Below the pieces are notes generated by a model. That model was not told the DNA's origin. It worked only from the letters and a program-made list of their open reading frames with translations, and ran no database searches. A stretch of DNA of 48,567 bases, the filler included, from Jimgerdemannia flammicorona (Eukaryota), in assembly GCA_003990765.1 (NCBI GenBank). It is 2 parts of 2 records of this genome, joined end to end, with 100 filler letters (N's around TTAATTAATTAA, not from the genome) between each part and the next. Parts side by side here need not be neighbours in the genome. Positions count along the whole stretch, not along the records: positions 24,336 to 48,567 come from RBNJ01001003.1; 1 more part is not named here. The stretch is one strand, 5' to 3'. Position numbers and translations under genes: made by a program. Numbering within the stretch: position 1 is the first letter of the stretch; every line of letters starts with the position of its first letter. Positions 2,632-48,420 of the stretch are shown piece after piece.

Positions 2632-3093
2632 TCTGACGGTTGATCTGAATTAGTAACATGAATCAGGGGAATAGATATTTGATCGCAGTACCTGAATCCA
2701 ATTCCCAAATATAGTATAGCCTTACAAATAGCAGTCATACTTTCACAAATGTAAATGTAGAAATTCTACAGATATAGAATCTTCACATTTATAGAGATTT
2801 CACAGATGTAGAGGATCTATACTTATAGAAAATGACTCACAGAAAACATAGTCATAACTTAGCCATCTTATAGCTAGTAAACTTGTATAAATATCCCAAT
2901 ATCTAAAGTAAATAAACCTCAGATCAAAATAGTTCAAAATAAAGAGAAAGCAAAGGAACTAGTAAGCCTATAGATAGATATATATTAAACTCACTCCTCT
3001 ACACCCTAAGGACTCTCAAGAGTTGGAACAAGTCAAGTTTTTAAGATACAGAAATCTGCTATACTTCTAAAGTTAGATGTCTGCTATATTACA
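2632..3093 (+). mobile_element. Solo LTR, same family as the LTR at 20327-20800
   Basis: Shares aacttgtataaata..., aataaacctcagatc.aaatagttcaaaa, aaaggaactagtaagcct and ...aagatacagaaatc with 20327-20800. Ends ctatattaca; the 5' end is degenerate (tctgac for tgtgac). No clean TSD. Confidence 0.85.
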
Positions 3094-3099
3094 ATATAT

Positions 3100-11305: not shown

Positions 11306-12258
11306 GCCTAAGATGGAAGAAGACCTGTGCCAATTTGTTAAAGGGTGTGATAAGTACCAAAAACAAGAATAAGATCAGCAAGACCAGGCACTCAGGTCAT
11401 CAAGAATTGAGCGTATCTCCTTTCACCACATTGCAATAAATATCATTGGGCCACTACCAGTAATACTATCAGGAAACTACTATATTATAGTTATTGTAGA
11501 CCTCTTTACCAAATGGATAGAAGCAGAAGCATTACAAGAAGTCAATGCCCTCTCTATAGCTGACTTCTTATACTGAGAAATCATCTGCCACTATAAGACA
11601 CCAAAGCAAATCACCCACAGATCATGGCACAGAATTTATTAATGGATTCTATGAGATAATATATCAGAAATCTAAGATCCAGCACATCAAGACCACTATA
11701 TATTACTCTCAAGGAAATGAACAGACAGAGAGAACCAACAAGACTCTCAAGAACATCCTAGTAAAGATCTCAGACATATACGAGAATTAGGATAACTACC
11801 TCCCAACTTCTCTCTCTATCCTATAAGATATACAGTCACAGAGTACACACTTTACCCCAAGAGAACTGCTCTTCAGAGAAGAAGATTCTGATGGAACCTT
11901 AGTTATAAATCTAGACCTAACTTAGAGATAAGTTGACTTGAAAATCTGGAGACTATACCAAATCAGGAAGAAGGCTGAAGATTACATCACCAAGTTATAA
12001 GTGCTGACAAGAAAGAATGTAGAAAAGAATGACAAGATCCTAGAACTCATCCAAATTGGAGAAAAGGTCCTACTATATTGAAATATAGTAGAAGCCTCAT
12101 GGTTACAAAAACTGGAGCCCAAATAGGAAGGACCCTTCTATGTACAAAATATCAAGAGAACTACCTTCTGGCTTAGAAAACTCTCAGAGACCATACTGTC
12201 TACTACAGTATACAGGAACAGACTCAAGAAGTACTATGAACCTATACAAGAGAAGTAA
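11306..12258 (+). mobile_element. Ty3/Gypsy integrase remnant (element A), 5' truncated
   Basis: PKMEEDLCQFVKGCDKYQ (end of the HHCC finger), FHHIAINIIGPLP, DLFTKWIEAEA, TDHGTEF, YYSQGNEQTERTNKTL and KLEPK*EGPF (GPY/F). No chromodomain. Confidence 0.9.
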
Positions 12259-12869
12259 AATGTAATGACTGCCCATGAGGTTCTAGTCTATAAATCATAA
12301 CAACATGTCCCATGACTAGCAGGCAATCTGTCTAGATCATTCTCTAAGAGATACAGTACCAGTAAATACTTATTTATGAGACTTTTGAAGCAAGAGAAGT
12401 TTGAACCATCAACTGATTGGTCAAGATCAGAATCAGGCCCTTGCTCTATATGAAGAGAGCAATCCTTCACCATCATACCAAAATACATAGAGAAGATATT
12501 AGCCCATAAATACCAATTTTTGACCCCCTGCTAGAGGTTATGGAATCAGCAAATTTTTCAGGACTAACCAATGAATAAAGACATTCAAGAGGATCTTTAT
12601 TCAGGAGGAATATGTAACAGTGACCTCATAATGATGATATCAGCACAAAAGACAGCCTTTTCTTGCAAGCTATCAGATCGGAGTACAAGAAGATCATATG
12701 GCATAACTCACCTAGGCTATAAGATGAGTAATAATGACCAACAGTGAGTCATTGGGACCACAATACAAATATCTTGAGAAATATAAAAGAATGATCAAGG
12801 AACTGCAGTAGCAGCAAACCAATAAGACTCATTAATCCCAAAATAGCTCAAAGACTTATTATAAACAAA

Positions 12870-13673
12870 ATGCCTACTGCTTGCCAAACCTCAAGATTAA
12901 GGAACCACCAAGACCCCTCAGTTCAGAAAAGGATGTCTCAAGACATCTGAAGAGCTATAAGGATCTGCACCACAAGAACTCCTAGTATCAATCTGGATAC
13001 TAGTGACCCTTATTATTATATCCTCTACTGCTGAAAAATGGAAACAAGAATCACTATTGCTATCAAATATCTCTAGATATGGCAAGAATATGAAAGAGGA
13101 AACCTCCTCTGCTGGGAATTCCCTCAAGCCAGCCCTCAAGAGCTACAAGATACCACTCTTATAGATATATATGAAATAAGGACAGCCAAGAAGATTCATC
13201 AGATCTTCAGACATACACTATGGTTGATTCCTAACTTAGAGTATACCAGAGTCTCAGACTTTAGGAATCTGTCAGCCCATCATATCAATGAACTAGAAGC
13301 CATGGATACTACAGAGGTCTAGTCTACTATTACTCTCAATAGTAACAAAATAGAAGAGTTCTGATATTCCATCCTCCAGAACAACTCAGATCAGTTCCTA
13401 CAAGAATTGATCTCAATATTCTAAGGCTCCAGTATTCAGGTTAGACCTCTCCAAGACCTCACATTTGTTTCTTATTTTGTAGAAGAGAATGTCATAGATT
13501 AGAGAGCCTCTGCCACTGCTGAATATGATGATGTCATCAACAATGACATCATCCTACACAATATACACAAAATGTGTAACCTATATAATGAGATAAATGA
13601 AATGTTCATAAATCTTATCTCCTTCAGTAATGATGAGGATGAAGCCTCCATAGTTCTGAATATCCTGCTTTAA
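12870..13673 (+). pseudogene. Accessory ORF 3' of pol in element A (268 codons with several internal stops); unknown function
   Basis: ATG at 12870 and one frame to TAA 13673: MPTACQTSRLRNHQDPSVQKRMSQDI*RAIRICTTRTPSINLDTSDPYYY...QEYERGNLL...LQDTTLIDIYEIRTAKKIHQIFRHTLWLIPNLEYTRVSDFRNL. Aligns with 42640-43564 (-) and 26911-27423. Confidence 0.75.
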
Positions 13674-17910: not shown

Positions 17911-18285
17911 CTATTCGCCGTAGAGCACGTCGTGATGGAGATGGTTGTCGGGGAGCGACGTAGTAGTAGCCACAGGGTGGCCTTGAGTGGTGGAGCCCGT
18001 CGCGGTGGAGGGCGTCGTGGAGGAGCGTCGAAATAGGGCCCTCATAGCGCGACGTAGTATGAGACATGGGACGGACTTAGTGGTGGAACGCATCGCGGTC
18101 GAAGGCGTCGTGTTGGAGCGCGTCGTGGTGGAGGACGTCATGGTGGAGTGCATCGTGGTGGAGCGCGTCGCGGTAGGGCCCGTCAGGGACGTCGTATAAG
18201 CATCCGCTGGACTCTCTGGCATGGTGGAACGCGTGGAGGTGGAGGTTATGTATGGTGTGTACGAAAGTTGGGATTCTGTCTTCAT
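17911..18285 (-). CDS. Putative 124-aa Thr/Ser-rich low-complexity protein
   Basis: Open ATG-initiated ORF MKTESQLSYTPYITST... with TTRST repeats; ORF and upstream DNA are paralogous to 420-1645. Coding status unproven. Confidence 0.4.
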   Translation of the reverse strand: MKTESQLSYTPYITSTSTRSTMPESPADAYTTSLTGPTATRSTTMHSTMTSSTTTRSNTTPSTAMRSTTKSVPCLILRRAMRALFRRSSTTPSTATGSTTQGHPVATTTSLPDNHLHHDVLYGE

Positions 18286-20326
18286 TGTGCTATCACTGGT
18301 GAAGTAGTAGAGGTTGGAGGGAAGACAAGAAATATGTAAAACAAATCCGGATACCGAACGCCAATGCTATAAATTATTTTTTACCATAGCGCCCCATTTC
18401 CTCGGTTTGACGTCATGGTGATCCTGCCAACACGGTGGCTGAGAGCGCACATATTGCTGCTAAACCGCACATCCATTTGGATATTTGTGACGAGGAGTAT
18501 CCGATGGGTGCTAACATTCATCACTTTCCTATCAACATGCGAAATATAGTTGGTAGGGAAACACAACTCCCCACTGACCAAGTTATAAATATATATAAAA
18601 AGCAAAAAAATATGATAAAATATTACAAAAAAAAAAAAAATAAAAAAAAAAAAAGAAAAAAAATTATTTCTTGCGAGGTGGCTGCCACGCGTGGCTTAGT
18701 CTAACTAACTGCGGGTCACTGACGGACGCGAAATATGGGGCTTGTACGACGATTGCCAAGCGACATTGAGCCATTTTCCAAAAAAAATCCATCATCAAAA
18801 AGCGTTCCGAGTAAAGGACATTTCGTAGCTCAACATATATTCTGATGTGTGTGTACATGAATAGGATTGGCAACGAAATATTGCGCTGGTGCCAAGGCAA
18901 TGCATGAATTTGTCATACGATTTAATATAGCTAACATCCGGCGGTTCCTTGGCAGACGCGTCGCTGTCCGTCAACAACCGGACACCCGAAATGCGCGGCC
19001 CTCAAAACCGCAGGTCTGTTAGTTGTATCCAGAAAGACCAGATCGGATACCCGACTGACGACAATCCGCCCTCAGATGAACCCACCATGGGAAGTTGTTA
19101 GCCAAAGGTAGGCAGAACTCTGGCCAGTAACCACTTCGGTTCCTATTGCGTTATTCACTAAATCACATTTCAAACTCAACTACAAAAAACGTGATCTGGT
19201 AACATGACATCAGTGGCCAAAATTAATATCCCTGACAAGTAATATTTCAGCACAACTTGCTGTAGAAAGGAATATCTGTAATAATCTTTGATAATATTAT
19301 ACAAACTTTCAGATATTATTCAGCTGATTTTTTATATCTAAAAATGGTAGCTTGAGAAAGGATCCTTGCTAGACCCATCATTTCCATCAGCTACCCCTGC
19401 TGGATGATAGGTCCACCAGCCCTGACTTCCTTTCAGAGCCATACTCCTTACCTCTTTTCTTGCTTTTTACATTCAGCAACTACTCTATTTTATAGGTATC
19501 AAATAGAATAAGAGAGAATAAATTAAACTTAAATCAGTAAACTCAAGTGAAATAAAATCACCAAATTATCACTATATACTAATTGAGATATGAACTTAAC
19601 TTAATTATAATCTAACTGATCTACCCCCTTCTCTCTCCTCCTCTTCTCAATAACACAGTTTTTATTTCATACAGCTGAGTGACAATATACTGCTTGACAA
19701 AAATTTAGAATAGGAAAATGATTTATGACCAGTGAATATTTATTATTAAGTAATAATTAATGTTGAAATAGGCCAACTACTGAGAAGTAATTATGAGTTC
19801 TATATTATAACTATTGAGATATTAACTTTATATATCAGTATCAAATTTTATGCCATTCTATCAATTTTACATTATTTATCAGTAATATATAAAATACCTT
19901 ATATATTATAAATAAAATTATTTCTTCTATTCATTACTATAAAGATTATAAGCCCCAATAACATAAGTCCTATTAGTAGCTAGAAAAGATAAATATAGTT
20001 ATTATCAGTTAGAGATAGTAAAGAAGTTTACTAATAGTAATAATAAAGTCCTCTCTTATAGTAGAGACAAATGCTCTCTTAAATCAAATAAGATCAATGA
20101 GATTAATATAATTAATGAATTTAGTAATATAGCTAGTAATAAAATTAGTATTTATAAGTTTAGTAATAAGACCAATGAATTTAATAAGTAATGTCAGCTC
20201 TATATATACTTCTAATAGTATGAGTACCAAATAGTACAAATAGTACTACTAACTCAGCTAATGATAATGATAATAATTAGCTAATAAATTTTTGCACATT
20301 ATAGTATATAATACTATACTATATAT

Positions 20327-20800
20327 TGTGACAGTACAGCCAGATTTGGAAGAAGGAAATAGGGAATAGACACTTGATCGCACCCATTCCCAAAGTAGTA
20401 AGGCATAGTTAGCAGTCTTCAATTTCGACATTGTCTAATTTCTTAGACATTGTCTAAATTTTAGACATTATCCAAATCGAATACCCTGATTTAGTATAGC
20501 ATTTAGACATTGTCCAAATGTTTTGACAAAGTCCAAATGACTCATTTATTACTTAGCCACCCTCTCATAGCTAGCAAACTTGTATAAATAACCCAGTATC
20601 TTCGAGTGAATAAACCTCAGATCGAAATAGTTCAAAAGCAAAGAGATAGTAAAGGAACTAGTAAGCCTGCAGGCAGATACACTTCGAACTCACCCACCCT
20701 CCCCTGCAACTTCAAGAGACTCTGCGAGAGTCAGAACAGTCAAGTTTTCAAGATACAGAAATCCGACATACTTTCAAGAGTAAGCATCCGCTATGTTACA
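20327..20800 (+). mobile_element. 5' LTR of Ty3/Gypsy element B (474 bp)
   Basis: TGTGACA...TGTTACA termini, TATA-like ttgtataaata, aataaa; followed directly by a TGG PBS and gag. Confidence 0.92.
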
Positions 20801-20803
20801 ACT

Positions 20804-20820
20804 TGGTGCCCATTGGCTGG
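20804..20820 (+). promoter_or_regulatory. Primer-binding site (TGGTGCCCATTGGCTGG); primer tRNA not assignable
   Basis: TGG begins 3 nt after the LTR's terminal CA. TGGTGCC is complementary to a tRNA 3' end ...GGCACCA; it could also be a CpG-decayed TGGCGCCC. Confidence 0.7.
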
Positions 20821-20914: not shown

Positions 20915-23900
20915 ATGGATATGAGACTGCCAGTATTCCATGAATATACCTCAGATGAATCAATCATCACCTTCATTAATGATTTCAAGCAGTATGCTGC
21001 CGTAAGGACTCTGACAGCAGTACAGCAAGTAGCCCTCATGCTCTTCAGCCTATGAGGCCCTGCCAGAGCAGTATTCACAGCCGCAACCCATGCAGGAAAT
21101 GATGCCGATACCATACTGATGGCACAGAAGACCTGGCTCCGAAACACATATTACACAGATGAGATCAAGCAAGCCCTGAAGGATCAGCTCAATACAACAT
21201 GCCAAGGAATGAGTGAGGATCCAAACACATTTTATACCAGAATTCGATATCAGATAATCCTTGCAGATTATGCTGCTGCTACCCGAGATCAAGTAGCCGA
21301 AGCAACCTTCATGAAAGGAGTCCATCCAGAAATAGCCATGGCCATCCGCTCATCACCAGTGATTCTGGATCTACCACAGAGGGTCACCTATGCTCAGCGA
21401 TACTGGATAACCAGACACCCACAAGACCATACAATGGAGAGAGTCACAGGAGTCAGAATCGAGGCACCTAAGACAACCAGTGTAATCCCCACCACAATGA
21501 TCAATCGAAACACACCTCAGCCAAAAGCTACCAAGCAGCAAAAGAACAGTGACCCTATGGAGGAACTTGCCAAAAGGTTTGCTGAAATGACTGCCCACCT
21601 GGGAGATGTGGTAAAGGAAATCTGAGGAAGAGATCACTGCCCTGTTCAGAAGTTTGCCGCCACCTCAGATAAGAAGAAAGGTACCTGCTACAGCTGCGGA
21701 GAAGAAGGCCACTACTCCTATGAATATATGAGTGAAACCAAATGCAAGGCTCAACCAAGCAATGCCACACGAAACAAGGAGCAGGCCAATACAATCACCT
21801 TTGAAGAAATCGGAGAATCTGATGAAGAAGAATGAGAGGCCTATCCTGCTCAGACCACCAAGAAGGATGTTCGCAAAGAACCCTACAAGAGACCGCCAGG
21901 AAGACCCAAGAAGAACCCAGTGGAAAAGCGGATGGAAACTGACACAGAAAGCCAAGCTGAAGAGATGGACCAGGATATTGAGCTGGAGCAAGCAGTTCAA
22001 GATATCATCCAAGGGACCACTCCAGCCAGCGAAAGAGAAAAAGAAAAGAAGCTTCGCAAGACCAAGACCTTCAAGTATGATATCTTCAAGGATCTCAGTC
22101 AACAAAAGGTCAATGCAACCTTTGGTCAGCTTGCAGAAATCCCAACATTCAGATAGCAAATGAGGTTTGGACTTGCCGAAACAACCAAGGAACAAGGATG
22201 GAAGATAACTGAGGCCAATAATGTTCAAGAGGACTCAGGAGAAGAAAGTGAGGACAATCGCAAAACCTCTGCCTATGCAACTTGCCAAATTGAAGATAGA
22301 ATCTTTAAAGCCATCATTGATACAGGAGCAGGAGGATGTCTCCTCAGTAAGAAGACAGCAGACCGCCTAGATTGGGATGTAGAAGAAGCAACTAAGCTAG
22401 TATTCGTCACAGCCGATGGCATAAGAGCCACACCTCTGGGAAAGATCCAAGATGTTCCCATCAAGATCGGAGGAGCAACAATCCCAGTAGATGTAATCGT
22501 AACTAATGCCACCAACTATGACATCCTCATCGGCAATCAATGGCTTCACAAAGCCAAGGCAGTAATTGATCTCAATGCCCAGAAGATGCAAATCACCTAC
22601 CGGGGACAGAAGATACGAATTCCCATCAACATCAACAAAGGAGTCCTGCCCGATATGGAGGAAGAAGAGAGTAAGCAAGAGGAAGCTTATATGGTGACTA
22701 CCCCAAAGAAGAAGAAAGTTGGATGGATGAGCGAAGAAGAATGGTGCAAGAAGATCACAGAAGGCTATGCCCCACAAGGAGTCTGTCCTCATGGAATCAA
22801 GATGTACTGTATGGAGCATGTCAATGATTGCTACCAGTGCACCATCGGAACCAGGAAGATCTACCAGGAAAGAAGCCAGAAAGCTCTCGAAAAACAGACC
22901 ATGGAAGAAGAAAAGGAGGAAGATGATGAACCACCAGCCCTCCTGGAGGACAGCAATGATGAAGAAGAAATCAAGATCAAGATTCGAAAGATCCACCCTG
23001 ACGCAGTCTTGCCAGAATACAAGTCAGAAAATGCAGCCGGAATGGACATTGCTACAGTAGAAGAAACTGTACTCGAATCCCAGACAACCACCCTACTCAC
23101 AACTGGACTAGAGATGACCATCCCAAAGGACCATGTCAGGATTCTCAAGACAAGAAGCAGCCTGGCTAGAAGCAAAATCACAATCGAAGGAGGAGTCATT
23201 GATTCAGACTATATGGAAGAAATTCTACTCATCGTTAGGAACCACAATCCTACAATTCCATTCCCAGTCAAGAAGAAGGACCAATTGGCACAGATGTTGA
23301 TCTTCCCAATCATACAGCCAAGGATCATAGAAGTCAAGAATCTGGAGGAAACAAAAAGAGGAAAGAAAGGATTCGGATCCACAGGAAGAGGAGTATTTGC
23401 CAGCACCAAGATCACTGAACTCGAGAATAAGAAGGAGGAAAACATTAGCAAGCACAGTTACACCATTGGAGATGAATTCCCACTCAAGAAGGAACTCAAG
23501 AAAATACTCCACAAATTCGAGGATATCCTTGCCACAGATTTCAAGGATATCAAGGGAAAGACCCCACACTACTATCACGAGGTAGATACTGGAGACACCG
23601 AACCAATTTATCAGAAAGCAAGACCTGTCCCACCAGCCTACCGAGAATGGCTCAGAGAAGAAATCAAGCAGATAGAAGAAGCCGGTATCATTAAAGAAGC
23701 CAGCAGCCCCTGGTCTTCACCAGTTGTACTAGTTCTGAAAAAAGAAAGCAAACCTGGAGAATTTGCCCCAAGGCTCTGTGTCAACTACAGAAAGCTCAAT
23801 GCAGTCACCAAGAAGGATCGCCAACCACTGCTGCTCATCAGTGACATTCTTATAACACTGGGAGACAAAGCACAGTACTACAGCACCTTGGACTTATACT

Positions 23901-24235
23901 CAGGATTCCACCAAATCGGACTCACAGAAGTGGCAAGTGAAAAGTCAGCCTTCATCACCCCAGACGGAACCTACATCTACCTACGAATGCCATTCGGAAT
24001 GTGTAATGCACCAGCAAGCTTTCAGTGAATGATGAACAAAATCTTCCGCTATGACATGGGAAGATGGATGATGGTCTATGTTGATGATGTAATCATCTAC
24101 AGCAAGATGGCTGAGGAACATCTGCAGCACATACAGTAGATAATAGAGAGACTAAGACAACATGGCCTTTATATCAAACCCAAGAAGTGCAAGTTTGCAG
24201 AAATCGAGATCTCCTATCTTGGCCATATCATCAAT
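20915..24235 (+). mobile_element. Single-frame gag-pol of element B: capsid, Zn knuckle, AT-hook-like motif, aspartic protease, Cys/His motif, dUTPase, RT (cut by the gap); inactivated by stops
   Basis: One frame from ATG 20915 with stops at 21053, 21623, 21833, 22154, 24026 and 24137. Motifs: CYSCGEEGHYSYEY (21686-21727), KRPPGRPKK (21887-21913), IIDTGA, ILIGNQWL, SSPWSSPVV, RLCVNYRKLN, LDLYSGFHQI, MPFGMCNAP and YVDD (24077). Confidence 0.95.
22970..23386 (+). other. dUTPase domain within pol of element B, between protease and RT
   Basis: AAGMDI (motif I), RSSLA (II), GGVIDSDY (III), DQLAQ (IV) and RGKKGFGSTG (V). Confidence 0.95.
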
Positions 24236-24335
24236 NNNNNNNNNNNNNNNNNNNNNNNNNNNNNNNNNNNNNNNNNNNNTTAATTAATTAANNNNNNNNN
24301 NNNNNNNNNNNNNNNNNNNNNNNNNNNNNNNNNNN
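24236..24335. other. Artificial contig-joining spacer (44 N + TTAATTAATTAA + 44 N)
   Basis: Exactly 100 nt; the central 12-mer gives stop codons in all six frames, typical of contig-concatenation linkers. Confidence 0.95.
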
Positions 24336-26927
24336 TTCTCAACCGAACTCATAGGGAAGTTTATGAACTAAACCTATCAGGAAACGGCAAAAGGTCCCAG
24401 AAGAAAGGAAAGGCCCCTCTGCGACCCAGGAGACAGTGAAGCCTTCCACCAACATTGGAGAATAATTGACACCTCAACAACAGCAACAATTAGTAGAACT
24501 TCTCAACAAATATCAAGATATCTTCACCACTGATTATGGCAACCTGCCATACAATCCATCATACCACCATAGCATAAATACAGGAAGTGCAACACCCATT
24601 CGGCAGAAACCCTATAGAATACCCCATCACTTGAAAACATTCAAAAAGGAGCACATCTAAGAACTCTTAGACAATGGAGTCATCCGACCCTCTACCAGCC
24701 CCTGAGCCAGCCCTATACTTATTGTACCAAAGAAAGGAGGATGGAGACTCTGCATGGATTACAGAAAACTCAACTCAGTCACTGAAAAGGATACTTATCC
24801 TTTACCCAGAATCAATGACCTTTTGGACCAGTTACAAGATGCCAGATACTTCAGCAGTATGGACCTCTTTGCAGGATTCCATGAGATCTCCATGGATCCT
24901 AAGGACATTCAAAAGACAGCCTTTCTTGCTCTAGGAAAACTGTTTGAATACCTCTGAATGCCCTTTGGACTCTGCAATGCACCCCCCACCTTCCAGAGGA
25001 TGATGAATTCAGTCTATGCCCCCTTGATCCATCACTGTCTGATTGTATACATAGATGATTCCAACATCTATTCAGCAAATTTCGAAGAACACCTGCACCA
25101 CCTAGAGGAATTCTTCAAGCTCACCCACAAGAATCACTTGAGACTGAATGCAAAGAAATGCTACTTTGGAAAACAGAAACTCAAATTCCTGGGATTTGTG
25201 GTCTCAAAAGAAGGAACTCATGCAGACCCAAAGAAAACTGAGAAGATCAACAATTGGCCAGTACCCAAGACTCCAAAAGAAACACTATCATTCCTGATGC
25301 TAGTATCCTACTACAGAAGGTTCATCAAGGATTTTGCCCAAATCGCTGCCCCAATCCAAATCCTTCTCAAGAAAGGAATGATATTCAAATGGACAGAATC
25401 ATAGGAAAAAGCCTTCAGAGAACTCAAGAACCGCATGACTACAGCACCAATCCTTGTGTGCCCCAATTTACAGAAGCCATTCATCTTGTATACAGATGCT
25501 TCCAAAGATGGCCTAGGAGCAGTTCTAGCCCAAGAAGGACCTGACCAACAGCACTATGTGATAGCTTATGCAAGCAGAGCTACCAATCAGCAGCAGATGA
25601 ACTATGGTAGCACCAAACTGGAATGCCTTGCAGTCATATGGGCGGTCACCCTGTTCAAGCATTACCTCATCAGAAAAAGATTCACCCTAATCACAGACCA
25701 TGCAGCCCTCAAATGGCTATTCAATCACAAGGAACCTGCTGGAATCCTAGTCTGCTGGATCCTTATCCTTCAGGATTACAAAATCACCATCATTCACAAA
25801 GCAGGAAAAGCCCACAACAATGTTGATGTACTTTCCTGCCAGCTTCAATAAATCAGATGAAGGGTGTTCTGAGGAACCACACCCTAAAGGAAGCTCCTCA
25901 GACTATCAAAGCACAAGAAGATCTCATTCAAAAAGAACATCAGAAAGCCCACCAAGGACAGACAAGCATAGAAGACAGGATTCGAAAACAATATCAACAT
26001 TGGCCCCACCTCAGAACTCAAGTCCAAGACATTATTCAGAAATGTGACATCTGCCAGAAGTACCAAGGAAAGAAGAACTATCAAGCCCCTCTGCAACCGA
26101 TTCCCCCACCCACTCACATCTTTCAAAGATGGGGAGTAGATGTAATTGGACCTCTACCAGTTATACCAAGAAGAAACAAATACATTCTTGTATTTGTAGA
26201 ACATCTGACCAAGTGGCCCAAGGCTTTCCCAATGGAAATCGCAGATGCCTTAACCATTGTAGGCCTCCTCCATGGACTCACACTCAGATATGGACCTCCA
26301 GAAGAACTCATCTCTGACCAAGGCACAGAATTCATCAATAACATAATCACAAGTTATGCCCAAATTCACAAGATCCACCTCAAAAGAACCACCTCATACC
26401 ACCCCCAGACCAATGGCATGACAGAAAGAATGAACCAGACCATCAAGAAAGAACTTGCCTGAGTCAACCCTACTAATTGGGACCTCTGCTTACCTGAGAT
26501 CCTATGGGAAATTCGGAATACCCTTACCACATCCACCAAACAAAAGCCATTCGAAATGATGTTTGCCAAGAAAATCAGAACTGCTGACCATGAGAATCTC
26601 GGAGACCTCCTCAAGAAGGCAGAATAGTTATGAAATCAAGCCTGAGGACAGATTATCAAAGCCCAGGAAAGACAAAAGAAGTACTATAACCAAAAACAGA
26701 AGGATCAGGAGATCAATATTGGAGATCAAGTCCTAGTTTGGAGAAGCATAATTGAGACAAACTTTGCCACCAAACTGGAACCGAAATGGGAAGGACCTTA
26801 TCTTGTACACAACATCAAAAGAACCAGCATCTATTTAAGAAGTATGGATGGACAAACCCTGAGAACACCAGTACACATCAATCATCTCAAGATATACTTC
26901 TTTTCATACTATGAATCAGAGAATTGA
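24336..26927 (+). mobile_element. pol of Ty3/Gypsy element C: RT, RNase H, integrase (GPY/F, no chromodomain); inactivated
   Basis: PIRQKPYRIP, RLCMDYRKLN, MDLFAGFHEI, MPFGLCNAP, YIDD (25048-25059), LYTDASKDGLGAVL, LECLAV, ITDHAAL, HQKAH...CDICQ, DVIGPLP, SDQGTEF, YHPQTNGMTER and KWEGPY. Stops at 24658, 24703, 24955, 25402, 26460 and others. Confidence 0.95.
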
Positions 26928-27423
26928 CAACTGCCTCCAAACTCTTGTTCTCAGTTCCCTCCAAGCCCTACCAGTTCCCCTGCCTCAGTTCCGGGAACCC
27001 AATGGAACCTATCTTCAGAGAATCCGAGTTCATCAAGAGAACCTCACTTTGGCCAAAAGGCTACTCCAGGTCTACCAGCTGCAGGCATATTATGCAATTG
27101 GAGAACAATTGCAGAATCTTCCTCTCCCAGACCTAGCCTATGTCCAAAACACCACTGGCCTGAACAGAAGGAACACTACTGCTGCAGACAGACTATACAC
27201 AATATATAAACGAAATCCTTCTGCCTTAATCCAGGCCCAGTTTTCCCTGAATGACCTCTAAAGGATGACACTGCCCACCTACCTCAGCATTATTTACCAA
27301 GTGGAGACCCTATTTCCTGAGGAAGAAGGAGAGCCCCTGGAATGGAGTGAACACAGCTCAGATGATGATGATGGAACAGGTATAGATGCAGAAGCTGCTT
27401 ATGTCTATTGGGATGATGACTGA
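26911..27423 (+). pseudogene. Accessory ORF 3' of pol in element C (170 aa with one internal TAA); unknown function
   Basis: ATG overlaps the integrase end. The single stop at 27259-27261 is restorable as CAA. Core YAIGEQL...VQNTTGLNRRNTTAADRLYTIYKRNPSALIQAQFSLNDL, then an acidic tail ending just before the PPT. Confidence 0.8.
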
Positions 27424-27449: not shown

Positions 27450-27462
27450 CAGTGGGGGCTGA
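27450..27462 (+). promoter_or_regulatory. Polypurine-tract-like site before the 3' LTR
   Basis: cagtgggggctga directly precedes TGTAAT; a hairpin tagtctg-gga-cagacta lies just upstream. Confidence 0.65.
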
Positions 27463-28941
27463 TGTAATAGACCAAAAACGAACTACCTGAATTATAACTT
27501 AGCCAGATGACGTGAACAATTAGCATACTTACTCAGTATGATGTGACTTCCAGTGTATCATAGTTACTCATGCCCACCACACTTATAATTAGCCAAGACA
27601 CCAGATCAGGATTGTTTACCTGTGTCCTGAGGACACACTCATGTCCTGCAAACACACTCATGTCCTGCAGACACACTTATGTCCTGTGGACACACTCATG
27701 TCCTGCAGACACACTCATGTTCTGTGGACACACCTGTACCCAGAGAACACACCTAAACATTACCGAAGATAGCAAATCTATAGTTAGTCACATAGTAACC
27801 AGATAGCAACCAACTTGTATAAATTACCCCAGAGGCAAGAGTAAATAAAACCTCAGTCTGAAATACAAATACCAAAGAAGCCTCTAAAGATTGAGCATTG
27901 GTCCCCTTTCCACTCCAGTCCACTTTCCGATACAAAGCTGATTTTGCTGCCAAGTTCAAGGAAGAACTTTGCTACCTTTAGAACTATTGGTTCACTTGCC
28001 AGATAAGCCTGAAGATTTGCTGCCAAAGTTCAAGAAGAACTTCACTGCCTTTTGAGTAATCTGCCACTTAAAGAATAAGCCACCGTTTCCAAGTTATCTG
28101 CATTTCCAGAGAAAGCCACCTTGCCCAAGCCAGTTTCTGATGCAACTTCGCAGTGATCTGTTCACACAAACAAAGCCAGTCCTTAATGCAACTTTGCCAA
28201 GAGACCCTTTCCAAAGCCGCCATCCTGTTTCCCAGAAGAACCCTGCCGATTCAGGAAGAATCCATGCCATCTGAGTTAATTCCCAGTTAAAGCCACCATT
28301 TTCAAGAAGCCTGCCGATTCAGGAGAATCTACATCATCCACAGTTTCCAAGTCATCTGCTGTATTCCCAGTTGAAGCCGAAACCACAACACCCGAGTCAT
28401 TGTTCCCAGAGGAGCCCGATTCGTGCTGTCTGAGTTATTCATTATTTCCAGTGAGCCTAGGAAGAATCCACGCCATACGATTCCCAGTGAGCCAAATTGA
28501 GTTATCCACTGAATTATCAGAACATCCGTATAAGGAACCCACCATACTACACAGAGATCATCATGCTACACAAGATCGTCACGCAGAAATCACATAAGGA
28601 GAACTGCTAAATTGCCAGACCATCATGCACAAGGAGATCATCGCGCTATACAGAAATCACCTGCTACTCAAGAAGGAAACCACTCATGCTACATACAAAT
28701 TCTGCTATTCCCAGTTGACCCAAGAAGGGAAAGACACAAAAATTGCTGCTACACCCAGAGAACCGTCCCAATAAGGAAATCGCTCGCAGATATCCAGCTT
28801 TGACTATTATACCGCTAAACACCAAGGACCTCAAGAATCTTAGAATATTTTGTTACTTTTGACAAAGTAACTGGGGGCTCAAGCCAAACTACATCAACCC
28901 CTAAACCTTGTAATTTGCCTCCATTGAGTCAGTACATTACA
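27463..28941 (+). mobile_element. 3' LTR of element C (~1.48 kb)
   Basis: TGTAAT...ATTACA inverted termini; family motif aacttgtataaat...gtaaataaaacctcag at ~27813-27856; abrupt switch to TA-rich flank after 28941. Confidence 0.8.
27621..27743 (+). repeat. 19-bp tandem repeat (ACACACTCATGTCCTGCAG-like, about 6 copies) in LTR U3
   Basis: Directly visible tandem units. Confidence 0.9.
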
Positions 28942-29154: not shown

Positions 29155-29530
29155 TGTAATAGTTGATCTAAATTAGAAATAAGAATCAGAAGATAGATAT
29201 TTGATCATAATATCTGAATCTAATATCTAAATTTAGTATAGTATATATAGTTAGCAGTTATCTGATCTATACAGTATAAAGAAATCTTCTACTTATATAG
29301 AAAGCTTGCAATTATAAAAAATCTATACACTGCTGAAATAAGTTATAACTTAGCCACTATATAGCTAGAAAACTCTAGAGTGAATAACCACAGATTAAAA
29401 TAGCTCAAAATTAAAGAGACAAAGGAAATGTAAGCCTATAGAACCCAAAAAACTCTGAGAAGTCAAAGATCACATATTTAAGATAAAGAAATCCACTATA
29501 CTTTCCAGGTTATATGTCTGCTATATTACA
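29155..29530 (+). mobile_element. Solo LTR, same family as 2632-3093 and 20327-20800
   Basis: TGTAAT...ATTACA termini; shares gttgatct.aattag, atagatatttgatc, ataacttagcca, gtaagcctataga and tgtctgctatattaca with 2632-3093. Confidence 0.85.
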
Positions 29531-30447
29531 ATATACAAGTATGCCTGATGACTAATGAATTTCAATTAAATGAAATAAAAATCATTCCAGTTATTCATAT
29601 TTTTATTTATTTCATTTTAAGTATATTTTTTATTTTTAAGTTTAAACAACCTTTCTTTTTTTTTATATTTTTCCTTAATAATTTCAATTTTAAATAATTT
29701 TTAAATACTGTTTATAAAATTTAATATATAAAAATTAATATAGTTATGAGTGTAGTTCGAAGTGGCCGAACCCGCGTAATGCGCGGAACGTTCATGCAAC
29801 AGGGACTGACGCGTTCCTTTTGTTTCAATCGTCCCCAGCAGGCAGTCCAGCTTAGCTTAGCTCGGACTCGGTTAATGTACGCCATTCTCAGCGCACTATG
29901 AATCAGCTTGTCGTCTTCGTTTTCTTTGCCATCCATCCTTGCACGTAGTCGGACGATATTTAGCAATTAGTCATTAGTAATTTCGTATGTTCAGTTTGCG
30001 TACCCCTCCCCCCCATCCCTCTTGGTTGAAGGACAATCAACGGCCACTTTCGCATATGAACGCGAATGGCGGGCCTTGGGATGCACATTCTTCCATATAG
30101 CCAAACCCATTACATTTCTTCGCAACACGTATTTTCGTTTACATATATTCTGGCGACCACTTACGCCGTTTTCACGCGAGAGATACTTTGCTTGAAAGAA
30201 TTTGGATTCCTTATTAATTAAGTTAAATTTCATCTCTAACTCTAGGTTTGCTTAAATAAATAGTAATATAATGTTAGCTGTAATATAAATTTTCACAACT
30301 TAAAATAAATAAATCTAAGTTCAATATTACTCACGGCCCAGGTCAGAGTGAGAGTCATAAATTCCGGAAGTGGTAATGTTCTTGAAGTCAATGCACGGTC
30401 GTCGACGGGAATATGGATAGGAGCATTGACGAGACCAAGGTGTATTA

Positions 30448-31608: not shown

Positions 31609-33091
31609 ATGAGCATGAACGAAAGTGGTGTTTGTCTTCGGGACGACATAGCCTCCATCTGGAATGACCCAACTTACCATGATGTGATCATTGTCTGCGC
31701 TGATGGCGTCAAGCTAGGCGCATGCCGTGCCATACTGGCCTCAAGGTTAGTCCGATTGCAATTCTCTCGTATACTTAACACTTTCCACACACCTAATTTG
31801 ATATCGTTTTGAAAGATGCCCATTTTTCAAGGCGATGCTATATGGAAGCATGCGGGAGGGTTTTTCTTGTCAAGTCGTCCTCCGTGACGTAACCTCCGAA
31901 GTATTCAACATTGTCCTTGGCTTCATTCACACTGAAACCATCGACAGCACTCTCGACATTGCCATTGCAGTGGGCATATACCGCGCTGCAAGTTTCCTTC
32001 TCCTCAACAAACTAATGGAGATGGTACTGGATCGCGCTCAACATCTCGCTGATTTTGGGGTCATTTCGTTGCTCCTCAACGAGGCCGCTGCTGCCATCCC
32101 CCGGAGTGAAGAAAACAGTGACCTTTACGATGTACTCCTCAATCCCTTTCGCACTCACAAGCTCGCCATCGGCGAGTTGACCAACCTCTCCGAAGAGGGC
32201 CTTGAGCTGCTCCTGATGGCACCGGAGAGAGCGGCCTTTATGACGCCAGAACATGATCTGTTGTTGTGCGTTATCGACTGGGTCTGGGGACGCAACGAGA
32301 ACGCGCCCTCGGCATCAGAGCGTCATATTATTTTGCATGATGTCAGAGATATGGTTGTAGGGTGCAATGGAACAATCCGGATGGGAGATGGCGCATCGCA
32401 TACCTTGCTGTTCAAAATGATAAAACACTTTGACCTTAGGCTTATCTGCCCACATCGACTCAAGATCCTCGCAGAGGCAATGGACACATTTTTGGTGGCC
32501 TCTCCACACTACATTGCACTTCACCATCATGCTTACAAGAATACGGTATGCCTTACGGGGCATCCATCCGCATGGCGTCACCGGTGGGATCCATCGAAAG
32601 TCGGTTCTCAAGTGGTCGTTTCAAAAGATTGCCAGGTTGTGGAGCTTCCATCGGGGGATTCCATTCAGACAGCACGACTTTCTGTTCCCGGGATGGAGGC
32701 TTACAATGGTCTATACGAATGGGACATCGTCGTTGAATCTATCGGGTCGTTTGCTTCCTACGGCGTCTGTGCGATTGGGCTCGTTGGAGAGGAATTCACA
32801 CAATTTGATGGTCACATGGCAAGCCAGCTGCATACATGGAGTTTCCAATCCTACAACAATAGCCAACGCTTGATTGGTGGAAAAAAATGTCTCAATTACT
32901 GTTACGGCAAACGTATTAAGAATGGTGACGTCGTAACCTTGCATTTAAATGTAAAGGATCGTAGCTGTTCCCTTTCGATAAACGGATTCAATTACGGGAC
33001 AACCTGGATCAATCTCCCCGACAAAGTGTACCCAGCTGTGACCTTATATTCACAATGTAAGTTTAGGATAGGTTTGTCAAGACAGAGATGA
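31609..33091 (+). CDS. BTB/POZ (+BACK-like) - SPRY/B30.2-like protein, 470 aa; exons 31609-31745 and 31816-33091
   Basis: A 70-bp intron (GTTAG...cctaat...AAAG) restores HDVIIVCADGVKLGACRAILASRCPFFKAMLYGSMRE (BTB). EHDLLLCVIDW is BACK-like. YEWDIVV...IGLV...GDVVTLHLNVKDRSCSLSING...LPDKVYPAVTL is SPRY-like. Confidence 0.9.
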
Positions 33092-42639: not shown

Positions 42640-43564
42640 ACAGTTATGCTGAAGTTAGTAGTAGACTCTGGGAGTGTGAAAAGGAAGTTGTTGACATTAT
42701 CTTCTAATAAAATAAGTGGGTTATTATTATTCACCAAGTTGTCTGAGGGGGTAATATCATTAAAGGATGTAAGATTATTCTGCTCTTGAGACCTCTAGTC
42801 AATGGTGAGATTATTTATAAGATAGAGAACATCTGTGGAATTCTAGAGATAGTAGACTCTCAAGAGAGAGTCTTAAAATAGTATGATCAGACTATGAATG
42901 AATTGGTCTAGATTGTTTACTGAGATGGGGTTCCAAAGGTCTTTAACCTCATCACTCTTGACTGTAATAGTAGATTGGGTCTCTTTTGTAGCCATTTCCT
43001 TAAAGTGGTCTATAAAACTTACCCATATAGAGCTATTTACTCAGGAAGATAGTATTATCCTTATGCAGGGGCCATGCTAATCTTCTCTATATCATTCTAA
43101 TTTTTTTTAAGTATCAGTGGTCCTGAAGGACTTGACTCAAAGTAGTCTATACAGTAACTTATCAATTCTTAGATATCAGAGACTTTGATATATTCTAGAT
43201 TAGAAATGGCACAGAGTATATGTCTAAAGATCTGGTAGACTCTTTTGACCAGTTTCTGTTCATATCTATCTATACCTGTAGTATCTACAATTTCTTAAGA
43301 GCTGGCTTATATAAACTCTTAGCAGAGGTGATGTCTCAGCTCATATTCTTACCATATCCAAAGACACTCAATAGTAGTGGTGATTCTTGTCTCTATTTCT
43401 CAATAGTTGAGAGTATAGTAATAGGGGTCCTTTATATAGAAGTTCAGACTAGGAGTCCTTCTTGTATATAGCCTCATTATCCTCTTGATATTAGTGAATA
43501 TCTGTTCTTGAACTGATAGACCTAGGTGACTCCTTGATCTGGCTATATGGTAGATAATAGGTAT
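42640..43564 (-). pseudogene. Accessory ORF 3' of pol in element D; homologue of 12870-13673
   Basis: (M>I)PIIYHIARSRSHLGLSVQEQIFTNIKRIMRLYTRRTPSLNFYIKDPYYY...IVDTTGIDRYEQKLVKRVYQIFRHILCAISNLEYIKVSDI..., then after a frameshift ETQSTITVKSDEVKDLWNPISVNNLDQFIHSLIILF. Confidence 0.75.
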
Positions 43565-44134: not shown

Positions 44135-47100
44135 TTCAAATGTATTTTGCTTCCACTGAGTAATAAGGTCTTATATGATTGTAGTGTATCTTAGTCTTGA
44201 GTATAACTTCAACCAGAGCCTTGAGTTGATAAGTATGATTTGTGAATTTTTGATAGATGAGATAGAGTTCTTCCTATTTCAGTTTGAGTTTGGTACTCCA
44301 TTTCCTCTCTATGATAGTACAGTATACTAAGACTTATTGACCAATAAGTATTTGAGATCTGCTTTATGGTAATAGTACTTCTTTTATTACTCTTGGGCTT
44401 TAGTAATAAAACCTTGTACTTGTTGGTATACTTTATATAACTGGGTGATCTCTTCAGTGACTCATTTTGCCAAGTCTAACTAGATTGATTCAGTGGAGTC
44501 TTGTACTTCTCAGCCATACATCAAATAGAAAGAGATCTGTTGGGTAGTAGTAGCTTTTGAAGTATAGATGCTGGATAGGATTTCTGAAAGATAAATATCC
44601 TAATTCAATTGATCTCTGATCTTACTGAGGCCTTGCTTGATGGTCTGGTTTATTTGTTTGATAAGTCTATTTTCTTTTAAGTGATAGACTGTTGTTGGAT
44701 GCAGTTTGATCTTAAAGTTGACTGTGAAGATCTTTATGGCTTTATTGATAAATTCCCAGCCTTAGTCTGTAATGATTTTCTTGAGAATACTATAGTGGCT
44801 GAAAATTTTATCATATAAGATCTCAATAATTATCTGAGCATCAGTAGTCTCAATGGCAAAGACTTCAGGCCATTTTATCAGATAATCTTTAATAGTGAGA
44901 ATATAGTATTTTCTCTAGCTAATTACTAATAGAGGGCCAATGATATCTATTCCTAGTCTTTGAAAGGCTCCAGCTAATGCTATAATTAGTATTAGTAGTA
45001 CTTTGTCAGTTGGCTTTTGTCAGTATCTTTGATAGGTATCATATTGTTAAATATCTTTTGAAATTTGTTTTCTCATTTTTGGTCACCAGTATCTCTTCTT
45101 AATTCTTGTAATAGTGGCTCCAATTTCTCAGTGTATATTCTGATCGTAGTTGTTGTAAGTATCTTCTGTTTTTCATTTTCTTGTGGAACTTAAGTATATC
45201 AGTCTCCTTTTATTCTCTAAAGTTTGCTATCATCTTCTTGAAATTTCTTGAATAAATAGCTTGTGAGCTGGCTAAATTCCCTTTTTGAGACTTCTATGAT
45301 ATAGGCTCCAGGTGAGAGTAAGGCACAGTTCTTAATTTATTTGGGTAAGTAGAAAGCAGTCTTCTCTTATAGGGACTCCTTCTCTTCTTATTGAGTTCAT
45401 GGAATTCTTGACAGAGTATCAATATTGAAGTTCTTGATGCCTTTCTAATAGAAAATAGTAAACTGGTATTCTTATAGAGACATAATTCATCTGGTAAATA
45501 TTTCTGAGAACTCTGATTTGTTGAACAACTATTATAAAGCTTAGTGGTCAGTGATAAGGGCAAATCTCTTTCCCAAGAAGTAGTGTCTGAAGTGATCTAC
45601 AGTCTATATTACTGCAAGATATTCTGGCTTAGTGGCTCTATAGTTTGCTTGTATCTTGTTAGTGGCCTTACTAGCATACTCAATAATATGTTCTTTCTTC
45701 TGGTCATCTAGCTGAGATACATAGATTAGATCCAAGTTCAAGGACAGAGATATCAGTTATCTAGATAAATAGCTTATCCAAATCTGGTTACACTAAGATA
45801 GGGACTTCAGTGAGGGTCTTTTTGAGTAGGTCAAATGACTTCTGCTGTTTTTCTTTCTAGTAAAATGGTTGATCTTTCTTAGAGATATTATGTAGTAGAG
45901 CTGCCTTATTAATTTTAAAATAAACTACTGATAGTAAAATGCTAATATGAGAAAGAACAGAACTTTCTTTGCAGAGATAGGAGTTGTATAGCTTTTGACT
46001 TTCTCTACCTTACATGGGTTAATATAGGTTTCATAGGCTAAAACTACATATCCTAAATATTAAACTTAGTGTTTTTCAAAGAAGCACTTCTTGGCATTGA
46101 GTCTGAGTTCTGAATTTCAGATAGTATCAAATACTTCACAGAGGTCTTGTAAGTATTGTTCAAATATTTCTGAGTAGATAATTATATCATCTATGTATAC
46201 TAGTACATTTCTCCCAATGAGGTCTTAATAGATATAGTTCATCATTTACTGAAATGAGGCTGATATATTGCTAAGTCTAAATGGCATTTGGAGATATTCA
46301 TACTTTTCTTGTCTAGTAATAAAGGCTGTTTTGAGATATTATTCTTAACAATAAATATTACTTGAAATCCTTGAAACTGATCAGTAGTGGTCATGTACTT
46401 GGCTTTTCTAAGAGTATTGAGAAGGTCATCAATTCTTGATAGTGGATAGATATCTTCTGTAAAGATCTTGTTAAGATTGCTGATGAAGCCCAGGGGCTTG
46501 ATGAGAGTCTGATAACTCTAATTTTTATTATTTATCTATATATTATTGTCTAACTCAATCAGGTGGTGTGGTATTTGATAGGGGCATTATTGGATTGGTT
46601 TGACATCTGTATATATTGCATATTCTCCAAATTGATATAGTAGAAAGTTATTGTATATATTAGTAAATATATCTTTGTATTTTTCTATCAACTTCTACAT
46701 CTGATGTTACTGATCCTTAGTTAGAGTTGTCTTGATGTCAATAGCTTTGATTGTTGAGTCTTTCTCTCTAGTACTGTCAGTCTCACTATAGAGAACTTGC
46801 TATTTTCCAAAAATTCAAAAACTTCTTCCTCATAGGTATCTATCAGTAGTTCAAAATATCCCAATATTATTTCTTTGAGAATTATTACTACTTTGAAGCC
46901 AAGGTTTTAAATAGGAATATAGATTGGTAATATTTGATTATGGATTCATTCTTTAGCTAAGAGGAGGTAATACTTTTCTTGAAGTTTCATTAATAGCTCA
47001 AATATCAGATTATTGGCATCCATGGGTAAGTATATGTCAAGGCTTCATTATTGATATAATTGAAGGAGGATATCATCTCTTGTTCAGATAGAATGGCAGA

Positions 47101-48420
47101 TATATAGTCTTATTTGGTAAAACTGAACTATTATTGCTAAGTAGACTTCAATAGATAGTAGTTAAGAGGTTTTATTAGTACTTCCAAATTCTCCTTGCCC
47201 TCTCCTAGTATTGTTCAGTTAATTTATCTTTTGAATAATAGGCTGTAATATCTTGATAAACAGAATTTGACAGATAGCTTCCAAGAGATTAAAGGTTTGG
47301 TAGTTTTTACTACTGTTGCAAATAATGATCTTTAGAGGACTATGATAATTCTGATCAGTGATTTCTCCTTCTACTGTAATTCCTTTGACTGTCAGAGATA
47401 ATCTTGATGCTAGTTGTCCATAGTTTCCAGGTAGTACAGTAAGTATAATTGGAAGATCAAAGGTTCTAGTGATCTTAGAATGGAGTATTGCCTGATAAAA
47501 GAGACAGAAATCATATCCTACTGATCCTTTGATTTGCACAAGAGGGGGTTGTGCCCAAGGTAATAGTAGTTTGACTTGGATAATTAGCTAGATCTTGAGA
47601 AATAATATCTCAGGAGTTACTACTATAAGAGAGAATCCATATGATCTGGCTTAAATAATGGCCAATGTACTCCAGTCTTTAGATTCTTTGTGTAGTTGAA
47701 TCTAGTACTTCTAAGTAGATCTAAGACTTCTATAAAGAGGAAGATAAGATTGACTCCTTGTTTGCCTTAGTATAGTTGACAGTATCAATAAATAATAGTA
47801 AGAATTTCTAATGGCAGATCTTAGATAGAGGTCTTATTCTTAGCTTTACAGTCCTCTTTATGATTGATCTCTTTGCATTTTTGACAGATTTAGTAAATTC
47901 AAGATTCCTATATATAAGGTGAGATCCTTTCTCTTAAATTGGCTCTTATAAGTATCTTTACTGAGATAGATACTTTGATACTCATACCAGTAGCAGATAA
48001 AAGTTTTTCCATAATTACAGTATCCTTGCCTGATGAATTCCTCATTCTGCTTAATGATTTCCTTACTTGTTGAGTACCTCTTTCAATATTTTTTATAGGT
48101 AGGTAGAGTGATCTGGAGGGCTTGGGTGATAATGTAGATACTGTTGTTATTGCCTTCAATTGTGAAAGTCTTCAAAGGTTGGTGAGAGAGAATCTTTTAG
48201 TCTTCTTTATAGGGCTTCTTGAAAACTTTAGAAGTAGGTGGTTGTGTTCATATGAGGACTGGGGCTTATTTTAACTTATCTTTGTCTTCATTATAGGTAT
48301 TAGAACCTTCTTGAGATCAAGGATTTGGCAGTTACTACAGTTATCTCTTAGTGAGTGGAAATGATTATAATGTTCACATATATCTAGACAGAAGGCTCAC
48401 ATAATTCATTTTTCCTTCAG
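44135..48420 (-). mobile_element. Decayed pol of Ty3/Gypsy element D: Cys/His region, dUTPase, linker, RT, RNase H, integrase
   Basis: Minus strand YIDD at 46186-46197 and MPFRLSN (degenerate MPFGLxN); RNase H LTEVPILV.PDLDKLFI; integrase DIIGPL, KWPEVFA and ITD*GWEF; dUTPase at 47175-47583. Many stops. Confidence 0.9.
47175..47583 (-). other. dUTPase domain of element D, upstream of RT
   Basis: GSVGYD, YGQLASRLSL, VEGEITDQNY, ICQIL and RRGQGEFGST correspond to decayed motifs I-V. Confidence 0.85.

Follow-up and report, generated by a model that had tools for sequence, protein, structure and literature searches.

Sense open reading frames between integrase and the 3' long terminal repeat of decayed Ty3/Gypsy elements of Jimgerdemannia flammicorona: probable accessory genes in two sequence families

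We analyzed a stretch of 48,567 nucleotides, filler included, from the genome assembly of Jimgerdemannia flammicorona (NCBI GenBank assembly GCA_003990765.1), hereafter called the window. Protein-level self-comparison and Pfam searches identified four decayed Ty3/Gypsy pieces in it (A, B, C, and D). Elements A, C, and D each carry an open reading frame (ORF) between the integrase region and the 3' long terminal repeat (LTR), at the places where the original prediction had put them, and we refer to these frames as ORF3. It is highly likely that ORF3 is a genuine accessory gene kept by selection, and not an env gene. Compared as sequences, the ORF3s form two families, a C type of approximately 170 amino acids (aa) and an A/D type of approximately 270 aa. 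Taken as a whole, the best explanation for these observations is that of selected accessory genes in two families that encode a dimeric adaptor or regulatory protein, and we hold this to be moderately probable. The three copies in the window are the following:

26911..27423, + strand: C-type ORF3 of 170 codons, from the ATG at 26911 to the stop codon TGA at 27421-27423, with an in-frame TAA at 27259-27261.
12870..13673, + strand: A/D-type ORF3, copy A, 267 codons with 7 in-frame stops.
42747..43564, - strand: A/D-type ORF3, copy D, with residues 1-144 at 43564-43133 and residues 141-231 at 43007-42747 in another frame.

All three are sense ORFs on the strand of pol, and both types end a few tens of bases short of the 3' LTR. 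The C-type ORF begins at or next to the pol stop: its start overlaps the end of the integrase frame (26925-26927) by 17 nt, and its end lies 40 nt short of the inferred LTR start near 27463. The A/D type begins approximately 600 nt past pol. Copy D is the most damaged, with 20 stops in 308 codons, a frame break after approximately residue 144 and ATA at the position of the start codon. The stops in A (7/7) and in C (1/1) fall where intact relatives carry R, Q, or W, which points to damage of the transition type; single C>T or G>A changes would fit these stops, a reading drawn from the residues of the relatives, with their codons examined for the metagenome locus L001 alone. Transition damage as the origin of these stops is thus supported. 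Contigs from 4 of 10 sequencing runs contain many diverged copies, whose differences are mostly transitions; a spliced joint near ORF3 was not among them, although contigs are unable to reveal transcripts.

Relatives of both types were readily found among public metagenome proteins. A phmmer search with the C-type ORF, without a length limit, against 1.84 billion representative proteins gave 5 matches, all of them short ORFs of 65-157 aa. A profile search yielded 14 C-type relatives with 51-75% identity, and four of the relatives (P0017, P0018, P0019, and P0021) are full length and intact (169-183 aa, 53-71% identical to the window copy). For the A type, profile searching gave 6 relatives, among which the intact 271-aa protein P0011 aligns end to end with copy A at 62% identity (expectation value, E, of 1.3e-93). 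In scans of viral contigs with the two families, neither the 33 nor the 140 pattern matches included a relative. Parts of element C appear to be represented in soil and root metagenomes, as 10 sequencing runs from 7 studies (soil and root metagenomes and a coded 'organism A') contain 6-27% of the sampled words; this would fit a fungus that lives in soil or with roots.

The evidence for selection comes from comparisons at the DNA level. A metagenome scan with a 6-sequence alignment gave 236 pattern matches, of which one locus, L001 (2297 nt), contains RNase H, integrase, and ORF3 in the same order as element C. Between the C copy and L001, differences in ORF3 occur at frequencies of 0.33, 0.24, and 0.57 at the first, second, and third codon positions. 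The proportion of nonsynonymous differences (pN) is 0.258 and that of synonymous differences (pS) is 0.784, giving a pN/pS of 0.33 in frame and of 1.04 and 1.23 in the shifted frames. For the A and D copies, pN/pS is 0.51 in frame and 0.96 in both shifted frames. In the integrase of the same C and L001 pair we found a pN of 0.069 and a pN/pS of 0.14. By this measure C-type ORF3 is constrained as a protein, but its nonsynonymous change in this pair is approximately 3.7 times that of integrase.

The frames might instead be open by chance, or the region might be conserved as non-coding DNA, for instance as a cis-acting RNA before the polypurine tract; its location just before the LTR, where cis signals sit, would be in line with this. 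The DNA match between A and D would also fit, as the ORF3 regions match over 414 nt (68.6% identity) and the pol regions have no such match. The excess of differences at third codon positions is not explained in this way, nor is the low pN/pS, which is confined to the ORF3 frame. Frames of 169-271 codons are moreover open in relatives down to approximately 52-56% identity. We consider chance or non-coding conservation highly improbable, and the in-frame ratio together with the intact relatives supports the original prediction that a third gene, protein-coding and under selection, lies between integrase and the 3' LTR.

L001 also supports the linkage of ORF3 to pol. In this locus the TGA that ends pol overlaps the ATG of ORF3 (ATGA), and in the C copy a 1-nt indel shortly before this site extends pol by 14 nt. 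L001 is itself damaged, with a premature stop in the C-terminus of integrase (1695-1697) and two in-frame stops in the ORF3 tail (2222-2290), one of them at a W of the relatives. The overlap of the C ORF with the integrase frame and the indel beside it could suggest that ORF3 is in fact a C-terminal part of Pol, reached by frameshifting or continuous with integrase in intact copies, and the database ORFs P0006, P0021, and P0022 are indeed open upstream of the usual start. Such an extension is very unlikely, since the search without a length limit found no protein longer than 157 aa (0/5) and none fused to pol (0/5), and since L001 has the pol stop directly at the ORF3 start. A methionine occupies the same column in 12 of the 13 sequences that cover the N-terminus, in part by construction, because gene callers start at Met. 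In A and D, pol and ORF3 are set apart by approximately 600 nt in which each of the three frames contains stops; the damage to these copies makes this a weak point.

We then considered the position of ORF3 in the light of the env genes of errantiviruses, which are encoded after pol. A degenerate env gene would account for the position between pol and the 3' LTR, and for nothing else. The highest 19-residue Kyte-Doolittle mean was 0.59-1.36 in all 6 intact relatives, so that no hydrophobic or membrane-spanning segment was found in any of them (6/6), in agreement with what had been noted from the window copies. The intact relatives are 170 and 271 aa long, far smaller than envelope proteins, and they are acidic and predicted to be all-helical. 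No Pfam family was matched at E up to 1 by any of the 5 queries. That ORF3 derives from env is scarcely credible, and the statement that it is not env stands.

Both proteins are soluble, with an isoelectric point of 4.5-4.7. The charge is concentrated at the C-terminus, where the last 40 residues have a net charge of -16 to -18 (C type) or -10 (A type) and end in a conserved aromatic or hydrophobic motif, ..GIDAE.AY.YW[DN]DD in the C type and ..DLISF.D..DEDEA..LN[FI]LL in the A/D type. The N-terminal half of the C type is only weakly basic (net +1 to +5), and nucleic-acid binding, which the original prediction had put forward alongside anti-silencing as a possible function, is therefore not favoured for this type. 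Comparison with gag and the rest of the window gave no likeness better than E 0.15, and sequence profiles of the PDB gave nothing below E 0.036; the best match at that value, a coiled-coil dynein regulatory subunit, was taken to reflect composition and not kinship.

The A and D copies of ORF3 belong to a single family. Their proteins align by BLASTP with E 1e-37 and 41% identity over approximately 184 residues (42% in the comparison that also covered the integrases), and the second block that had been proposed for this pair is real, as an intact relative matches D at 43007-42747 with E 6e-11. The interval 12850-13258 against 43585-43176, that is the ORF3 region, is the sole part of A and D that still matches as DNA. 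The three integrases of A, C, and D are about equally distant from each other at the protein level (35-39% identity). The integrases of A and D are thus no closer to each other than to that of C, yet the ORF3s of A and D are approximately 42% identical, from which it follows that ORF3 need not track pol. This hints that ORF3 may have moved between pol lineages by recombination; the likeness of A and D to the exclusion of C would reflect either an exchange between pol lineages or a lineage-specific rate.

The original prediction had placed all three ORFs in one conserved gene with a common core. This is corrected here, as A and D stand as one family but C is assigned to a second, with a likeness to A/D that is marginal. 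The best BLASTP match of C with A has E 0.53 and lies at a different place from the claimed core, and C with D gives E 0.011 on the segment that had been pointed out. Searched against the window, intact proteins of the C type matched A/D at E 0.95 or worse, and those of the A type gave no match to C. When profiles were compared with hhalign, the proposed register (Y-A/E-I-G, then approximately 26 residues, then an A-K-basic-I..aromatic-basic stretch) was recovered three times, with E 0.0048, 0.0095, and 0.019 and probabilities of 7, 4, and 2%. Richer profiles did not raise this significance.

That C and A/D are very diverged homologues of one ancient ORF3 gene across the clade nevertheless deserves serious weight. 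The two types are alike in position, strand, and overall build, being acidic and helical over the first two thirds, with a helix of approximately 36 residues at an offset of approximately 14 residues and an acidic tail. The repeated choice of the same register by hhalign is in line with this. In shuffles of the columns of the A-type alignment (n = 200), the mean score was 13.9 (standard deviation 2.6) against 22.2 for the real alignment, which was reached by 2/200, corresponding to a marginal empirical p of approximately 0.01 for one chosen comparison. In decoy searches, the A-type hidden Markov model (HMM) ranked a real C-type protein 1st of 1004, and the C-type HMM ranked real A-type proteins 2nd and 3rd of 1004, but a shuffled decoy first. 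One of the six intact cross-type pairs, P0021 with P0012, scored a z of 4.9, reached by 1/500 shuffles; the other five gave z of 0.4-2.3, and composition-corrected BLASTP aligned the P0021/P0012 pair in a different register with E 1.0. With integrases at 35-39% identity and an ORF3 that changes faster than integrase by the factor given above, a recognisable likeness might also have been lost.

Other observations count against common descent. In a control with nine pairs of frames, the off-frame score (41) equalled that of C and D in frame (42), and the hhalign probabilities are low. The layouts differ as well, with C at the pol stop and A/D approximately 600 nt later. A and D, moreover, share their ORF3 although their integrases are no nearer to one another than to that of C. 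A core common to C and A/D is not established by these comparisons, and although one ancient gene is quite possible, we lean toward two families.

Structural modeling was carried out for both types. AlphaFold2 predicts, at low confidence, that both are all-helical over the first two thirds, as had been suggested, with a long helix at residues 34-69 in the C type and 48-83 in the A type (approximately 36 residues each). The predicted layout is the same in both: a short helix, a gap, the 36-residue helix, shorter helices, and a tail. The tails, with a predicted local distance difference test score (pLDDT) below 50, are read as disordered acidic tails. With the C-type model as query, Foldseek found 0 PDB matches at E 0.001 or better. 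In the ESM Atlas the best structural match, to histidine-kinase helical hairpins, had a template modeling score of 0.37, which is under the threshold of the tool, and it is taken as no lead; the nearest clusters were unnamed or unrelated.

A homodimer model of residues 1-140 of the C-type protein P0017, made without an alignment, scored 0.55, compared with 0.00 for the best of 3 controls. In the runs at least 94% of the contacts agreed, and the pLDDT of the partner was at least 79. The predicted interface is formed by the long helix in antiparallel orientation, with contacts 52:52, 38:63, and 42:59. In calibration, the same mark was reached by 21/30 solved one-chain pairs and 0/23 solved single chains of microbes; for eukaryotes the figures were 17/29 pairs, 1/7 for pairs without an older solved relative, and 0/30 single chains. 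The model supports a C-type homodimer in which the long helix would pair antiparallel.

The shape and charge of these proteins, the conservation of their tail, and an evolution that is rapid yet constrained lead us to propose tentatively that ORF3 might encode a dimeric helical adaptor or regulatory protein, by analogy with the accessory proteins of complex retroviruses; in this detail the proposal falls well short of probable. The long helix would pair antiparallel to form a homodimer, and the acidic-aromatic tail would bind a basic partner, either a host transcription or chromatin factor or the integrase or nucleocapsid of the element itself. This binding would then aid expression or integration of the element. 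Evolution at approximately 3.7 times the rate of integrase fits a role in interaction with the host. ORF3 could be made from a subgenomic (spliced) RNA, as is the case for retroviral env, and for the A/D type this would be the only obvious route. For the C type, re-initiation at the overlapping pol stop and ORF3 start would be an alternative, which the ATGA overlap of L001 allows. In a bolder version, the lineage bearing dUTPase, in a soil or root fungus, would be 'complex' in the sense used for retroviruses, with a fast-evolving dimeric regulator of its own; the acidic-aromatic tail of this regulator would either recruit the transcription or chromatin machinery of the host or block a host restriction factor, and C and A/D would be diverged forms of one ancient gene. 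We regard this as improbable.

Several points weigh against the interpretation as selected genes for a dimeric regulator. The relatives all come from short metagenome contigs with automatic gene calls, and 'intact' refers to the open frame only. The evidence for selection comes from a single C-type DNA pair and from an A/D pair that is badly damaged, and the pS of the C pair is saturated (0.78), for which reason we give pN/pS and no true dN/dS. Among the listed runs that contain the stretch, none is on record as RNA. The mean pLDDT of the models is 57 for the C type and 42 for the A type, the latter too poor for a statement on the fold. The dimer result is a model confidence obtained on a chain without a solved relative, which for eukaryotes is the worst class of the calibration (1/7). 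Finally, the present data tie the acidic tail to no partner, and the mechanism is drawn by analogy.

The remains of the carrier elements and the other features of the window are listed below; the coordinates of the domains of element C were derived from residue positions.

11400..12256, + strand: integrase remnant of element A, from tblastx to the integrases of C and D; the frame ends at ~12254-12256.
~21.0 to 24.235 kb, + strand: element B, with zf-CCHC, aspartyl protease, dUTPase, and RVT_1 (Pfam).
24236-24279 and 24292-24335: two runs of N, 44 bases each, forming a gap between B and C and cutting off the 5' part of C.
24.4 to 26.927 kb, + strand: element C, with reverse transcriptase (RT), RNase H, and integrase (Pfam).
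24724..26927, + strand: pol remnant of element C, with RVT_1 at ~24724-25200 and RNase H at ~25468-25779.
~25911-26066 and ~26121-26405, + strand: zinc finger and rve core of the element C integrase, whose frame stops at the TGA at 26925-26927.
27463..27870, + strand: LTR start downstream of C, beginning with TG after a G-run at 27454-27458, with TATAAAT at ~27818 and AATAAA at ~27843.
31802-33088: host-like gene for a BTB/SPRY protein (Pfam scan).
38582-39484: host-like gene for a protein kinase (Pfam scan).
44253..47539, - strand: pol remnant of element D, with dUTPase at ~47539-47177, RT at ~46475-45919, RNase H at ~45720-45409, and integrase at ~45082-44253.

In element C the Pfam matches are RVT_1 (E 1.1e-31), RT_RNaseH (1.8e-34), Integrase_H2C2 (4.7e-08), and rve (1.2e-07), with the integrase in a different frame from RT and RNase H. 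Element D was delimited by tblastx against element C and by its dUTPase match (Pfam 5.9e-17). The order RVT_1-RT_RNaseH-Integrase_H2C2-rve in C and dUTPase-RT-RNaseH-integrase in D is that of Ty3/Gypsy pol. A dUTPase lies between protease and RT in both B (~23006-23386, + strand, Pfam 1.9e-23) and D (~47539-47177, - strand, E as above). In element A, a spacer of ~610 nt between the end of the integrase frame and ORF3 gave no Pfam match in three frames (12100-12878). Searches of element C in three frames, and of the spacers that follow the integrases of A and D, found no chromodomain, but in A and D, which are damaged, a decayed copy could escape detection.

Elements B and C are two different Gypsy elements, B ending in the middle of RT at 24235 and C starting before an RT of its own. 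This follows from the runs of N between them and from the presence of the same RT stretch on both sides at only 38% identity (23870-24235 of B against 24841-25206 of C). A single element spanning 21-29 kb would be an artefact of assembly. Element C is incomplete on account of the N gap, and A lacks its 5' end, so that a full pair of LTRs is present in no element of the window. The LTR start downstream of C is placed near 27463 by inference, as contigs from two runs differ in the letters before 27478.

One family of LTR-like units is present in three copies, at 2639-3098, ~20400-20805, and 29162-29535, with 63-78% identity; the units contain a TATAAATA box and AATAAA and end in TTACA. The second of them, which is followed by a primer-binding site of the TGG type, is the 5' LTR of element B; the third lies ~1.7 kb past the LTR start of element C. 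Between these, the region of 27.9-28.9 kb contains internal repeats whose copy number varies in metagenome contigs. The truncated element A adjoins a retroelement remnant of the non-LTR type at 7200-11200 on the + strand (RVT_1 1.4e-15), with a GDFN-like endonuclease motif in the read-through translation. The GC skew of this region is very high (+0.35 to +0.50), so that its + strand is G-rich and C-poor. The composition of the window alternates strongly, with a GC content that swings between 0.19 and 0.59. GC-rich arrays of a 15-nt unit (GGTGGAGCGCGTCGT-like) occur at 650-1600 and 17950-18370, ~17 kb apart and each beside an AT-rich stretch; these arrays could be a minisatellite or else repetitive coding sequence.

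It is commonly assumed that LTR retrotransposons require gag and pol only, and to our knowledge almost no extra genes of such elements have been characterised in fungi. Where additional genes are maintained by selection, they point to poorly understood stages in the life of the element or to host conflicts. The present ORFs add two orphan protein families linked to retrotransposons of which soil and root metagenomes contain many copies, and for the C type the models make a prediction that can be tested, namely a dimer of antiparallel helices with an acidic tail. Should ORF3 encode a transactivator, a targeting adaptor, or an anti-silencing factor, it would help to explain the spread of these elements in the host.

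Among known systems, the env of errantiviruses (Drosophila gypsy and relatives) is alike in position, but the ORF3 proteins described here have no signal peptide or membrane anchor, are a fraction of its size, and are acidic and helical. Complex retroviruses encode regulatory proteins 3' of the structural genes, an example being Tas of foamy viruses, which has an acidic activation domain. As a small non-structural protein encoded near the 3' LTR, Tas resembles the ORF3 protein in location and in what would be a comparable acidic-hydrophobic C-terminal tail; the ORF3 protein may work in a similar way, but no likeness of sequence or fold was found, and the parallel is one of analogy only.

The closest parallels by position are in other Ty3/Gypsy elements. 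The available text of PMC5718144 treats extra ORFs after pol as an established class in which ORF3 need not be env, names plant and rotifer Ty3/Gypsy elements, and derives the rotifer ORF3s from enzymes (a DEDDy exonuclease and a GDSL esterase/lipase); for the extra ORFs of plants and rotifers it cites Steinbauerova et al. and Rodriguez et al. 2017 (PMC5408684). As far as these sources describe them, the aORFs and ORF3s of plants and rotifers are, like those reported here, sense ORFs between pol and the 3' LTR that are not demonstrably env and are specific to a lineage. The rotifer proteins are derived from enzymes, whereas those encoded here are small, non-enzymatic, and helical, in a host that looks fungal; the plant aORFs were compared with ours by description only.

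For fungi, the accessible part of Novikova et al. 2010 (PMC2864245) reports Gypsy elements with an unexplained extra ORF, some of them with a dUTPase between protease and RT, as in elements B and D. The elements described there carry a chromodomain, in contrast to the post-integrase regions of the window, and their ORFs could be set beside ours by description only. A further extra gene inside a fungal Gypsy element is brtn of the Boty-like elements of Botrytis cinerea (Zhao et al. 2011, title cited in PMC8365987), which going by that title is antisense, whereas the ORF3s described here are sense and downstream of pol. We found no description of either protein family in the literature, with the figures of all papers and the supplementary table of PMC2864245, which may show similar ORFs, outside the search. 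Each ORF3 is a sense ORF of its own, conserved among copies and placed between pol and the 3' LTR, and so belongs to the positional class of accessory ORFs (ORF3/aORF). Both families appear to be undescribed, and the ORFs reported here appear to be additions to this known class of unexplained ORF3s.

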